From positions 1,024,001 to 1,088,000 of the forward strand of contig OZ242358.1 in NCBI GenBank assembly GCA_965208835.1: DNA of 64,000 nucleotides. Direction: 5' to 3'. The position numbers and the translations under genes are program-made. Shown here piece after piece: positions 19,089-32,464 of the stretch. The stretch comes from Candidatus Latescibacterota bacterium. GTDB lineage: Bacteria > Latescibacterota > UBA2968 > GCA-2709665. Numbering within the stretch: position 1 is the stretch's first letter; each line of letters opens with the position of its first letter. Under the pieces are notes generated by a model that ran no database searches, was not told where the DNA came from, and saw nothing but the letters and a program-made list of their open reading frames with translations.

Positions 19089-19505
19089 ATGCGACCTATG
19101 ACGCCGTGGAAGATCAATCTGGACGACGTGCCTGAAGAACATCAGAAGTGGTCGTGGAGCACTGGAAACTACGAACGCTATCGTCGCCATGTCTCGGTTG
19201 CTCTGGGAAACTCCCCGGAAACGCCACATCCGTTCGACGTTGAACTGACGCGCCTGCCCCCGGGCGCGCGCCCGTGTCCCGTGCATTCGCACGACCGGAT
19301 GTGGGAGTTCTTCATCGTCGTATCGGGCCGCGCCGTGGTGGACCGCGAAGGGGAATCCACCGAAGCCGTCGCCGGAGACTGCTTCATGCAGCCGGCCTGC
19401 ACACGGCACCGGATCCGGAACGCCAGCGACACCGAAGACCTGGTCTTCTACGTGATCGCCAACGACCCCGGCGTTCCCATTGTGAGCCGCAAATACGAGG
19501 TCTGA
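19089..19505 (+). CDS. Cupin-domain protein
   Basis: PVHSHDRMWEFF...G and HRIRN cupin motifs. Confidence 0.85.
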   Translation: MRPMTPWKINLDDVPEEHQKWSWSTGNYERYRRHVSVALGNSPETPHPFDVELTRLPPGARPCPVHSHDRMWEFFIVVSGRAVVDREGESTEAVAGDCFMQPACTRHRIRNASDTEDLVFYVIANDPGVPIVSRKYEV

Positions 19506-29970: not shown

Positions 29971-29998
29971 TTGACAAAAGGGTCCGTTCGTTTATATT
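29971..29998 (+). promoter_or_regulatory. Candidate sigma70 promoter for the lnt-tatC operon
   Basis: TTGACA-16 nt-TATATT; a divergent TTGACA for bioF lies at 29945-29940. Confidence 0.55.
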
Positions 29999-30142: not shown

Positions 30143-32464
30143 ATGACCGAGGCGCGACAGGGCACGGACTGGAGATGGATGGTGTTGTTTCCGGCGGTCT
30201 CGGGCCTTGTCCTTGGCGCGGCATTTCCACCCCTGCCGTTTGGTTTTCTGTCTTACGTCGCGCTGATTCCGCTTCTGCTTTCGGCGGAACGGCTGCGCGG
30301 CAGGGCGGCTTTTAGCGCCGGGTTCGTCCAGGGGATATTTTTCTACGGTACGACACTCTATTGGATCGGATCGATCACGCCGCCCGGCATGGCCGGGGCG
30401 GCGATTTACATGTCCCTGTTCCGCGGTCTGTTCCTGTGGACGTTCGCCCGCGCAGTCAGGCGGTACGGTATTGCGGGGATGTGGAGCGCGCCCTTCCTGT
30501 GGGTCGCGTTCGAGTATTTCAACTCACTGGGAGACATGGGTTTTCCCTGGGTGGTTCTGGGAAACTCGCAGACGGCCTATCTGTGGCTGATCCAGTACGC
30601 GGAAGTGACGGGCGTGTACGGGGTGTCGTTCTGGATTGTGCTTGTCAATCTGAGCATAATGATGCTCTGGAGGAACCGGTCGCGCCGACGGGTGTGGGCA
30701 GCCGCGTTGGCCGTGCTTTTCGCGGGACCGGCGGCGAACGGGTATCTGGCGCTGAAGGACGATCCGGACGAACAGGCCGTGGCGGTGGGCCTGGTCCAGC
30801 CGGATATGCCGCCGGTGGCCAAGGAATACCGGGGATTCGACTACAATTTCGGCAAACTGAAGCCGATGACCGCGGAGGCGGCAGGGCAGGGTGCGAAGCT
30901 TGTAGTGTGGCCGGAAACGGCGGTCGGCTATCTGAAAGGGGAACTGTACCGGCACCATCGCGAGCGGGTGCAGGCGATGGTGGACTCGCTCGGGATTTAC
31001 TTGTACACGGGCGCATACAGACTGGAAGCTGGCGACCCGGTGAAGGTGTTCAACTCGTCTTTTCTGTTCGTGCCCGAAAAAGGGATCTCCGGATACTACG
31101 ACAAGACCCGCCTGGTGCCGTTCGGCGAACGGGCGCCGTTCCCGGAGATACTTCCTTTCTTGCGAAAGATCCGGTTCACCGGCGGCGGATTCGTGGGGGG
31201 CAACTGGGATTCCGGTGAGACCCGTACCGTCTTCGACGGCCCCGACGTCCGATTCTCCGCGTTGATCTGTTACGATTCGGTCTTTCCGGGATTCGCAAGG
31301 TCATTTGTGGACCTGGGCGCTGAATTCCTGGTGATCATCACCAACGATGGCTGGTTCGGCCGGACCTCCGGACCCTATCAGCATGCCGAGGCCGCGGTGT
31401 TTCGCGCCATCGAGAACCGGCGTGACGTGGTACGCTGCGCGAACACGGGCGTTTCCACGTTCATCGACGCCTATGGACGGAAATCGGGCACGACGGGAAT
31501 CTTCCATCCGGCGGTATTGACGCAGGGGGTGACTCCGCGAACCGCGAAGACGTTCTATACGAAGCACGGAGACCTGTTCGCGCAACTCTGCATGGTACTG
31601 GGCGCGATTCTGGTTTTGATGGCCTTCCGAGGCTACGCTGTGGATGCAGAGCATTCCATTCTGCCCCCCGGCACAGACACGCCTTCCGAGAGCGCGCCTG
31701 TACCGGCTCCGGCGGCCGACGACAGACCGATGCCTTTTCTGGACCATCTGGAGGAACTCCGCTGGCGTCTGCTGAAGGGGCTGGCGGCCCTGGTTGTCGG
31801 CGCCGTGATCTGCGGGATTTTTGGCGACACGATTCTGGGATGGCTGGTGTTGCCGGTCAGGGAAGCGACCCCGGTCATGAAGCTGTTGGGCGTGGCGCCG
31901 GTTGAGCCGCCGGTCAAGCTGATATATTTGAAACCGATGGGGATGTTTCTCGTTAAACTTCAGATTGCCCTTGTCGGCGGCGCGGTGCTGGCGCTGCCGG
32001 TTCTCCTGTATCAACTGTGGATCTTCGTGGCGCCCGGACTGTTGACAACCGAGCGGCGGTACGTATCTTTCATTGTCTTTTCGTCGTCGATATGTTTCGT
32101 CCTGGGAGGCGCCATCGCATACCTGAGCGTGGTGCCGCTGTCGTTTCGATTCCTGATTCTGATCGGCGAAGGAACCGGCGTCGACCCCCAGTTCGACATC
32201 GGCTTCTACATCGGTTTCGTGTTGCGCCTGCTGGTTGCCTTCGGCGTCGTTTTCGAACTGCCGGTCGCGGCGTTCTTTTTGAGCCGGATCGGCCTGCTGA
32301 CCGCGCAGCGGATGCGCCGGGGACGGCGGTACGCAGTGGTGATCGGCTTTGTTCTGGCGGCGCTGCTCACGCCTCCGGATCCGATCTCACAGTTGATGAT
32401 GGCGCTGCCGCTGGTGCTGCTCTACGAATTCAGCATCTGGGTCGCGCGGGTCGCCGGCAGATGA
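30143..32464 (+). CDS. lnt-tatC: Apolipoprotein N-acyltransferase fused in frame to TatC
   Basis: Lnt: GFPW, WPETA, YDKTRLVPFGE, ICYD, TNDGWFG, RCANTG. Pro/Ala-rich linker. TatC from 31730: MPFLDHLEELR, YQLWIFVAPGL, FELP, LTPPDPISQ, PLVLLYE. Confidence 0.9.
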   Translation: MTEARQGTDWRWMVLFPAVSGLVLGAAFPPLPFGFLSYVALIPLLLSAERLRGRAAFSAGFVQGIFFYGTTLYWIGSITPPGMAGAAIYMSLFRGLFLWTFARAVRRYGIAGMWSAPFLWVAFEYFNSLGDMGFPWVVLGNSQTAYLWLIQYAEVTGVYGVSFWIVLVNLSIMMLWRNRSRRRVWAAALAVLFAGPAANGYLALKDDPDEQAVAVGLVQPDMPPVAKEYRGFDYNFGKLKPMTAEAAGQGAKLVVWPETAVGYLKGELYRHHRERVQAMVDSLGIYLYTGAYRLEAGDPVKVFNSSFLFVPEKGISGYYDKTRLVPFGERAPFPEILPFLRKIRFTGGGFVGGNWDSGETRTVFDGPDVRFSALICYDSVFPGFARSFVDLGAEFLVIITNDGWFGRTSGPYQHAEAAVFRAIENRRDVVRCANTGVSTFIDAYGRKSGTTGIFHPAVLTQGVTPRTAKTFYTKHGDLFAQLCMVLGAILVLMAFRGYAVDAEHSILPPGTDTPSESAPVPAPAADDRPMPFLDHLEELRWRLLKGLAALVVGAVICGIFGDTILGWLVLPVREATPVMKLLGVAPVEPPVKLIYLKPMGMFLVKLQIALVGGAVLALPVLLYQLWIFVAPGLLTTERRYVSFIVFSSSICFVLGGAIAYLSVVPLSFRFLILIGEGTGVDPQFDIGFYIGFVLRLLVAFGVVFELPVAAFFLSRIGLLTAQRMRRGRRYAVVIGFVLAALLTPPDPISQLMMALPLVLLYEFSIWVARVAGR

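Follow-up and report, generated by a model that had tools for sequence, protein, structure and literature searches.

A Natural Fusion of the Apolipoprotein N-Acyltransferase Lnt to the Tat Receptor TatC in Candidatus Latescibacterota

Results

Structure of the Fusion Gene

The window analyzed here is a stretch of 64,000 nucleotides from a Candidatus Latescibacterota bacterium. Its forward strand carries an lnt–tatC fusion gene at positions 30143..32464, which begins with ATG and consists of 773 codons followed by a stop codon, with no internal stop in the window sequence. Lnt, which adds the third acyl chain to lipoproteins, and TatC, which recognizes twin-arginine signal peptides, are normally the products of separate genes. 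An earlier note made from the sequence alone had reported one 773-aa frame holding a full Lnt and a full TatC; the open reading frame and the Pfam and NCBIfam matches confirm this, and relatives keep the same single frame. A candidate sigma-70-like promoter (TTGACA-16-TATATT, 11/12 matches to the consensus) is found at 29971..29998 on the same strand, approximately 145 nt 5' of the ATG.

The Lnt module occupies residues 1–498 (30143..31636, forward strand). It gives Pfam matches to LNT_N (residues 20–170, 112.7 bits) and CN_hydrolase (residues 216–446, 98.8 bits) and an NCBIfam match to lnt (TIGR00546, 321.1 bits against a cut-off of 132.9), and it aligns with residues 24–510 of the approximately 512 residues of E. 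coli Lnt (5xhq), extending into the last helix of that protein. The architecture is that of an eight-helix membrane domain with a periplasmic nitrilase-like domain inserted between the last two helices. By homology, the nitrilase domain would be inserted between H7 and H8, with the N- and the C-terminus in the cytoplasm; in the AF2 model, whose pLDDT is mostly 85–96 in this module, a beta-rich domain is flanked by helices that precede residue 205 and by a helical stretch at residues 478–495. Counting the helices from Kyte–Doolittle hydropathy proved too crude, and homology to solved structures was used in its place. The motifs WPETA, YDK, and ICYD, which the earlier note took for the catalytic Glu, Lys, and Cys, do correspond to the catalytic residues: E258 (codon 30914..30916), K321 (31103..31105), and C376 (31268..31270), all on the forward strand, align with E267, K335, and the nucleophile C387 of E. 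coli Lnt, respectively, and none of the three varies among 55 fused homologues. The module resembles the stand-alone E. coli enzyme (PDB 5N6H, 5XHQ, 5VRG) from end to end and retains the triad; it is a complete apolipoprotein N-acyltransferase with intact catalytic residues and probably keeps its textbook activity.

Residues 499–529 (31637..31729, forward strand) form a 31-aa linker, predicted to be cytoplasmic, that is rich in Pro, Ala, Asp, and Glu and includes the [ST]ILP motif conserved in the family. The earlier description of the linker as Pro/Ala/Asp-rich was right in kind: the linkers of 114 fused proteins contain 16% P, 14% E, 14% A, and 13% D. They range from 18 to 95 aa with 42 distinct lengths, are always in frame, and in only 23 of the 114 proteins contain a Met in any position; variable, in-frame, Met-poor linkers are what would be expected if translation of tatC depends on read-through from lnt. 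In the AF2 model, pLDDT falls below 50 at residues 498–530, and the linker is accordingly predicted to be disordered. Comparison with unfused relatives indicates that it derives from the acidic N-terminal tail of a former TatC. At the junction, the sequence GGC TAC GCT GTG, with GAGG at 31629–32, is present as had been claimed; the GTG (V500, 31640..31642, forward strand) is probably a relic of the former tatC start, and its use as a start codon is not conserved.

The TatC module, residues 530–773 (31730..32461, forward strand), has six helices and starts with MPFLDHLEELR at M530, exactly where it had been placed at position 31730. Its matches cover the entire Pfam TatC model (residues 534–756, 226.4 bits, model positions 1–208 of 208) and positions 2–215 of 215 of the NCBIfam tatC model (TIGR00945, 197.1 bits against a cut-off of 132.7), its AF2 helices fall within residues 532–772, and it aligns with residues 1–231 of Aquifex aeolicus TatC (4b4a), from the first residue through the end. 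The same end-to-end alignment of the fold and the same N-terminal motif relate it to canonical TatC generally (A. aeolicus 4B4A/4HTS; the TatC chains of 9DZZ, 9E01, and 9R91). The departure is thus in architecture, with TatC as the last 244 residues of a 773-residue polypeptide instead of a stand-alone protein of approximately 230–300 aa, whereas the domain itself is standard. Residues H535, L536, E537, L539, R540, and E637 are invariant in the 55 fused homologues, and E538 is found in at least 90% of them. The HLxELR motif of the cytoplasmic N-terminal helix and the conserved Glu of the first cytoplasmic loop belong to the signal-peptide binding site, in which E15 and E103 are the E. coli residues. 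The module is a complete TatC and probably retains its textbook activity as the signal-peptide receptor of a minimal TatA–TatC system.

Genome Context and Distribution of the Fusion

The genome is a single contig, 97.8% complete, and a check for further copies, which the earlier note had suggested, showed that the fusion gene is its sole lnt and its sole tatC above the cut-off. The genes for Lgt, LspA, and one TatA lie at other loci, and therefore both pathways need the fusion gene. The window has neither tatA nor tatB, in agreement with the earlier reading; the sole tatA-family gene (TatA/B/E, 78 aa) is at genome position 2,954,543, approximately 1.9 Mb from the fusion. We considered the idea that Lnt stands in for the absent TatB and rejected it, because a single TatA-family gene is the rule across the phylum in fused and unfused genomes alike.

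In a phylum sample of 140 genomes, mostly Candidatus Latescibacterota, the fusion is carried by 79. The hosts are uncultured, sponge- and marine-associated bacteria. In most of the rest of the same class, the two genes are separate and lnt lies directly upstream of tatC: at 26 of the 29 unfused same-class loci fetched, the lnt and tatC matches are at most 292 nt apart, and tatC has its own start (M-S/T-D...) 3–6 nt past the lnt stop. The other Latescibacterota classes of the sample do not link the two genes, and lnt was found within the fetched flanks of tatC at none of 75 loci from other phyla, where the upstream neighbor differs as well, 20 of the 75 having tatA/tatB immediately before tatC. 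The architecture LNT_N + CN_hydrolase + TatC appeared taxonomically restricted, with 2 of the best 150 representatives. The fusion thus arose from adjacent genes, and it did so repeatedly, since four changes of the fused state on a tree of 58 loci imply at least three independent fusions. Fused and stop-separated forms coexist within one genus (g23).

Discussion

Proposed Organization of the Lnt–TatC Protein

We propose, with a probability of roughly 0.8, that the gene encodes a bifunctional inner-membrane protein in which Lnt and TatC are autonomous modules on a cytoplasmic tether, and that it originated by stop loss in an lnt–tatC pair. The lnt stop codon would have been lost in a closely spaced pair, after which the C-terminus of Lnt would continue directly into the pre-existing acidic N-terminal tail of TatC. 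The resulting tether, a putatively disordered, acidic, proline-rich segment of approximately 30 residues, would connect the two modules on the cytoplasmic side, and in this Latescibacterota order TatC would be produced as part of the fusion. Judging from the sequence comparisons, the full-length protein is probably the functional form.

Both termini of E. coli Lnt are cytoplasmic (PMC5500888), and TMH1 of TatC has its N-terminus on the cytoplasmic side (PMC13323110). [quoted passage not shown] The two modules most likely work autonomously, autonomy being an assumption of the model. The AF2 single-chain pTM is 0.68, a value that does not distinguish modules in fixed contact from modules that are independent; in the ESM Atlas, a 97%-identical homologue (P0002) was used for the query. 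A functional link between the modules could account equally well for the repeated fusion and for the synteny across the class.

Alternative Explanations

An artefact, in which assembly or sequencing erased a true stop or frameshift separating lnt from tatC, deserves consideration only because some relatives have the two as adjacent separate genes, and its probability is negligible. All 50 genomes of the same order, many of which consist of a single contig, have an open junction, so that the fusion extends in frame well beyond a single assembly; 49 of the 50 have a TatC-bearing open frame of at least 764 aa, and in the remaining one (G019) the gene is interrupted by a contig end, its fragment covering residues 261–773. 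An independent contig from another study contains the entire gene with 54 substitutions and zero gaps, Logan contigs from two studies span the gene gap-free, and a collection of 5.8 billion proteins holds 56 clusters, at 54–98% identity, with the three-domain architecture. The evidence from sequencing runs consists of contigs, and for positions 31634–36 conservation in relatives was used. The TAC at this site had been suspected of being a lost TAA or TAG. Stop loss as such holds in principle, as the relatives' lnt and tatC are adjacent with 3–6 nt between them, but the loss is ancient: a stop at 31634–36 occurs in none of the 19 other family members, which have other residues at this codon, His or Arg in most members of the genus. 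The fusion is genuine and not an assembly error.

Given a genuine fusion, TatC could still act mainly as a free protein, released by internal initiation at V500 or M530 or by proteolysis of the tether, with the fused form a tolerated by-product. The internal GTG with its GAGG, proposed in the earlier note as a route to free TatC, speaks for this, as the GAGG lies 7 nt upstream in this genome and residue 500 has a start codon (ATG/GTG) in 10 of 15 genus members (GTG in five, ATG in five, GTA in one, GCA/GCG in three, and ACG in one). As a general route, however, it is not supported, since the remaining 5 genus members and all five further genera of the family lack the start codon, and just 2 of the 15 have the GAGG. 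M530, for its part, occurs in all 114 fused proteins, and A. aeolicus TatC does start at the equivalent Met, but we rejected it as a start-codon signature, because it is equally conserved as a clearly internal Met in unfused TatCs with N-terminal extensions of 20–280 aa. A by-eye reading of the 30-nt stretches upstream of M530 revealed no SD-like motif common to the family, and a consensus scan of the junction region 31300–31730 found no promoter-like site. The predicted disorder and exposure of the tether would favor proteolysis, and the presence of fused and stop-separated forms side by side in one genus also points toward a free TatC; against this, none of the 79 fusion genomes has a frameshift or stop in the fast-evolving linker, where they would be neutral if tatC were initiated independently. 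Overall, we regard a mainly free TatC as improbable, but a fraction of TatC may be made free in addition, by initiation within the frame or by cleavage of the tether.

The last alternative goes beyond autonomous modules and assumes functional coupling: three Lnt modules would surround the trimeric Tat receptor and lipoproteins that Tat exports folded would be N-acylated near the translocon exit, or Lnt and Tat would be co-regulated or co-localized. Tat export and lipoprotein N-acylation may be physically coupled, and this would accord with the three or more independent fusions and with a class-wide lnt–tatC synteny that is missing elsewhere; the mycobacterial Lnt–Ppm1 fusion is a precedent. 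The core of the Tat system is a trimer of TatBC units, (TatBC)3, in which the signal peptide binds to TatC TMH1–3 at their cytoplasmic ends and transport has been inferred to take place at the trimer's periphery (PMC13323110), where a tethered Lnt would sit. Five TIGR01409 matches above the cut-off represent the candidate Tat substrates of this genome, and three of the five are Tat signals that carry a lipobox Cys; with a stricter RRxF pattern there were 22 matches (approximately eight credible on by-eye reading) and the PF10518 profile gave three at E ≤ 10, while a loose Tat-signal regular expression on a home-made gene call was rejected as non-specific, its 123 matches being mostly membrane helices and Sec signals. 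On the TIGR01409 count, lipobox Tat signals account for 8 of 22 in fused genomes vs 0 of 12 in three unfused genomes, but these counts are small, repeat the same orthologues across related genomes, and include two ambiguous Cys signals (WTGC in the unfused genome G047 and TWGC in the fused genome G111). Other observations also weigh against coupling. Lnt is not the next step after release from Tat, because Lgt and LspA, both encoded far off, must act first; the tether is predicted to be disordered, and its length, 18–95 aa, is not conserved; and the covalent link is dispensable, because a single genus holds both forms. We therefore consider functional coupling doubtful, while giving it some weight. 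A shade more doubtful is its most specific version, in which the fusion and the class-wide pair may mark a Tat-lipoprotein maturation assembly, with a TatC trimer, three peripheral, flexibly tethered Lnt modules, and N-acylation of folded, Tat-exported lipoproteins at the translocon exit. If true, this assembly would be the first natural link of a protein translocase with a lipoprotein-modifying enzyme.

Significance and Relation to Known Systems

Returning to the bifunctional protein with autonomous modules, its predicted role as the sole source of both activities would mean that a large eight-helix enzyme on each TatC N-terminus, beside the signal-peptide docking site, is compatible with a working trimeric Tat receptor. 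Membrane segments on the N-terminus of TatC are tolerated in engineered E. coli TatB–TatC, in tandem TatC–TatC, and in the natural tandem TatC of haloarchaea; these fusions link Tat components with one another and involve no unrelated enzyme.

To our knowledge, Lnt and TatC, both textbook proteins of envelope biogenesis, have always been studied separately. Searches of the literature for the fusion yielded no paper that describes it; the earlier note likewise knew of none, and the Lnt–TatC fusion thus seems to be undescribed so far. Public records label the fused proteins only "apolipoprotein N-acyltransferase", and therefore annotation-based reconstructions may score tatC and the Tat pathway as missing. 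The natural protein is also a ready means of studying whether Tat export is linked in space to lipoprotein maturation, a question worth asking because the fusion originated repeatedly and because mycobacteria provide a precedent.

That precedent, described in PMC3460810, is Ppm1 (Rv2051c) of M. tuberculosis, a bi-domain protein consisting of Lnt (D1) and a polyprenol-monophosphomannose synthase (D2); in M. smegmatis and C. glutamicum, ppm2 (lnt) and ppm1 are separate genes of one operon, and the mycobacterial ppm2–ppm1 operon ties lipoprotein acylation to glycosylation. The two systems share an N-terminal Lnt with the partner on its cytoplasmic C-terminus, and in both the partners are operon neighbors in some lineages and a single polypeptide in others. 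They differ in the partner itself, which is a glycosyltransferase at the cytoplasmic face in Ppm1 and the six-helix membrane translocase receptor TatC here. Canonical Lnt and TatC are separate proteins; the Lnt–TatC fusion joins them in one polypeptide, in a different phylum from Ppm1, and has arisen at least three times.

The fusion gene and its two modules

The lnt-tatC fusion gene extends over positions 30143–32464 of the forward strand as a single frame of 773 codons without interruption, and a strong promoter candidate, TTGACA-16-TATATT, lies upstream of it at 29971–29998 (+), judged by its match to the consensus only. In the 773-aa protein, Pfam identifies LNT_N (residues 20–170), CN_hydrolase (216–446) and a full-length match to TatC (534–756), and the NCBIfam equivalog models are passed by both parts (lnt, 321 bits; tatC, 197 bits; cut-off 133 for each), confirming the earlier note's description of one frame holding Lnt and TatC. 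Comparison with the solved structure aligns residues 24–510 of E. coli Lnt, through its last helix, to residues 21–498 of the query, with E267, K335 and C387 of E. coli facing E258, K321 and C376; residues 530–772 pair with Aquifex aeolicus TatC over its entire length, beginning with the initial Met. In E. coli TatC, E15 and E103 belong to the signal-peptide binding site. The AF2 pLDDT is about 90 in the Lnt module, 70–85 in TatC and below 50 at residues 498–530.

E. coli Lnt is described as having eight helices, with H7 and H8 flanking the nitrilase domain and both termini cytoplasmic (PMC5500888), and in the (TatBC)3 core complex TatC TMH1 has its N-terminus on the cytoplasmic side (PMC13323110). 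By homology, both ends at the junction would be cytoplasmic, a point that the earlier note raised, so the modules could be joined on that side without an extra membrane pass.

Authenticity of the junction

The genome is a single contig of 5.18 Mb, 97.8% complete, and a check for other copies gave one TatC and one Lnt match above the cut-off, both within the fusion frame. The fusion protein was found in 41 of 41 genomes in a nearest-relative search, and in the phylum-wide sample the junction is open throughout the order of this genome, which comprises families f1 and f2 and 50 sampled genomes with the present one counted; in 49 of these the TatC-bearing open frame measures 764–841 aa, and in G019 a contig end falls inside lnt and the remaining piece covers residues 261–773. 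A collection of 5.8 billion proteins yielded 56 clusters at 54–98% identity that share the three-domain Pfam architecture, plus a further block at 37–42% identity. Logan contigs, which are assembled sequence rather than individual reads at 31634–31636, span the gene from end to end: those of run X1 (maybe the source sample) are identical to it, and those of run X7, which belongs to a different study, differ by 54 substitutions without any gap. The possibility that the fusion is present only in this assembly is contradicted by relatives, protein clusters and run X7 alike, and an assembly artefact is ruled out by the open junction in 50 of 50 genomes, the 56 clusters and the gap-free Logan contigs.

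In genome G029, a single contig, the fused gene (C1:5245440–5247709) is split between two reading frames close to the Lnt N-terminus (residues 8–95 versus 54–771). This reflects either an erroneous frameshift or damage to the start of lnt; the break is away from the Lnt-TatC junction, which is intact.

Linker and translation of tatC

Among 114 fused proteins, the linker is 18–95 aa long, with 42 distinct lengths, and is composed of P (16%), E (14%), A (14%) and D (13%), with Met in only 23. Its counterpart is the acidic N-terminal tail present on unfused TatC of this phylum, which measures 20–35 aa in the class and, in a different class, 185–280 aa in family f10. A long tail at the TatC N-terminus seems to be a phylum-wide feature. 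At the f10 loci L181 (954–2186, G048) and L182 (735–2390, G054), the acidic, low-complexity extension stands ahead of EMPFLDHLEEFRW, and the G054 TatC has an insert in the first periplasmic loop that resembles, by eye, a CarboxypepD_reg domain.

The junction details reported earlier are correct: the sequence, GAGG at 31629–31632, GTG at 31640 (V500) and ATG at 31730 (M530). V500 aligns with the start of the sister lineage's tatC, and GTG 31640 is probably a relic of the old tatC start. As a general route to free TatC, the internal GTG with GAGG is not supported: among 15 genus members the codon is ATG in 5, GTG in 5, GTA in 1, GCA/GCG in 3 and ACG in 1, hence a start codon in 10; it is one in none of five other genera of the family, and the upstream GAGG occurs in 2 of the 15. 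M530 is invariant (114/114) and is not a start marker, because this Met is just as conserved in proteins where its position is plainly internal. No promoter-like site was found within 31300–31730. In-frame length changes are numerous in the linker, yet no frameshift or stop occurs in it across the 79 genomes with the fusion, a pattern that speaks for tatC translation being dependent on the lnt frame.

The proposal of a lost stop at 31634–31636 stands in part. Relatives do have lnt and tatC split by a stop, but none lies at this codon in 19 other family members, and within the genus it is mostly a His or Arg codon.

A [ST]ILP motif (SILP, 31655–31666, residues 505–508) is present in all 20 f1 loci examined despite the variable linker, and a second, G[ST]VP-like motif is found in other genera of the order; both may be short linear motifs.

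Distribution and phylogeny

In 140 phylum genomes of at least 85% completeness, tatC is present in 138 and lies inside a fused frame in 79. These are the 50 of the order together with 29 of the 63 from family f4 (genus g23, 23/28; g27, 2/2; g28, 4/7); G106 and G138, which break off at contig ends, are assigned to neither state. Of the 40 loci fetched from the rest of the class, 29 are unfused, and in 26 of these lnt is directly 5' of tatC, with the matched parts at most 292 nt apart; two others have a gap of 1.5–1.9 kb and one (G095) is broken. In unfused class loci, tatC starts (M-S/T-D...) only 3–6 nt past the lnt stop, and in five loci (G098, G101, G102, G110 (g23), G130) the two genes share a frame split by a single stop. 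In other classes of the phylum, lnt and tatC are distant or on separate contigs. A cross-phylum set of 80 tatC loci, from one-genome-per-species contigs, had lnt inside the fetched flanks (up to 3 kb) only in the five loci of this phylum and in none of the 75 from other phyla, 20 of which carry tatA/B directly upstream of tatC.

A maximum likelihood tree of the concatenated Lnt and TatC parts (58 loci, no outgroup; L058 and L067, with partial TatC matches, and family f2 omitted) places the order as sister to the adjacent-gene genus g13 and requires four state changes, in the order, a g23 subclade, a g28 subclade and g27. On this tree, the fusion was gained at least three times, with a fourth gain or one loss in addition.

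Among the best 150 of 1.84 billion cluster representatives, both modules occur in two, P0024 (the same order) and P0107 (f4); the other 148 align in one stretch of the Lnt part (query residues 1–508), and Pfam found no TatC domain in five of the longer ones checked. The architecture appears confined to this class, because a fused protein of another lineage should have outscored the Lnt-only matches listed. The Atlas cluster has 53 members, 92% with TatC, and is named Candidatus Latescibacterota, as in the titles of loci L070, L072, L073 and L075; some source names in the 5.8-billion collection read Gemmatimonadota or Gemmatimonadetes. Taxonomic names are given here as in the record titles.

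Tat pathway and genomic context

Pathway genes are scattered in the genome (lgt, 4.74 Mb; lspA, 3.42 Mb; a single 78-aa tatA, 2.95 Mb, 1.9 Mb from the fusion gene). The fusion gene has unrelated neighbours, namely a class I/II aminotransferase on the opposite strand, and a Na/Ca exchanger and dTDP-sugar enzymes downstream. Judged by gene content, the Tat system here is a minimal TatA-TatC one. A role of the fusion as a TatB replacement was rejected, since a single TatA-family gene is usual in the phylum whether the genes are fused or not. In many f4 genomes, the single tatA is only 5–10 kb from lnt-tatC (e.g., G083 C4:248777, G141 C1:2063588, G140 C6:143083).

Three of the five TIGR01409 matches in the genome combine a twin-arginine signal with a lipobox Cys. 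They lie outside the window, near 19328 (+), 4913965 (−) and 3708923 (−) of contig C1, and are a TRAP-type solute-binding protein (LAGC), a protein of 327 aa (LAGC) with a very long stretch rich in Glu and Lys at the start of its mature part, and a protein of 1008 aa (AAGC). Sequencing runs from 10 studies contain near-identical DNA (33–48% of sampled words); the labels of several, sponge or marine metagenome, suggest that the lineage is associated with sponges or the sea.

Discussion

We consider it probable (about 0.78) that the gene encodes a bifunctional polypeptide of two autonomous, intact modules, the product of two closely spaced genes that lost the stop codon between them. Loss of the lnt stop codon would yield one polypeptide, and the fusion would be retained because tatC would then have no start of its own.

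That tethering of Lnt to TatC is itself functionally important seems unlikely. Repeated fusion, the class-specific lnt-tatC synteny and the Lnt-Ppm1 precedent (PMC3460810) speak for it, as does the docking of the signal peptide at the cytoplasmic ends of TatC TMH1–3, with transport inferred at the complex periphery (PMC13323110); but tether length is not conserved, Lgt and LspA must act ahead of Lnt, and a single genus contains both fused and stop-separated forms. Lipobox-bearing Tat signals do exist, with 8 of 22 TIGR01409 matches in fused genomes versus 0 of 12 in three unfused ones, although these counts are small, the same orthologues are repeated in related genomes and two Cys-bearing signals are ambiguous (WTGC in unfused G047, TWGC in fused G111).

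Public records name the fused proteins of 773–822 aa (P0002, P0006, P0030, P0060 and others) only "apolipoprotein N-acyltransferase", so that tatC would appear absent from these genomes in annotation-based surveys. Full-text searches, judged by titles and abstracts, found no description of an Lnt-TatC fusion, and PMC5449189 mentions Latescibacteria once, in a context unrelated to the fusion. We class the fusion as real, old, recurrent and, within that literature, undescribed, with both parts well understood and no new mechanism demonstrated.

Engineered TatB-TatC and TatC-TatC fusions exist. Among other top-ranked long Lnt proteins (P0175, P0181, P0186, P0155, P0177) are Lnt+SNase (688 aa), PAP2+Lnt (735 aa) and Lnt+LEA_2 (622 aa) architectures, and two of 826–842 aa have about 350 C-terminal residues without a Pfam match. 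The SNase-, PAP2- and LEA_2-bearing proteins show, at the level of domain architecture, that Lnt fuses readily with neighbours. The genes for Lnt and Ppm1 are reported to sit side by side in one operon in M. smegmatis and C. glutamicum and to form a single bi-domain protein in M. tuberculosis (PMC3460810), and we offer this pair, adjacent genes in some species and one protein in another, as a precedent for Lnt-TatC.
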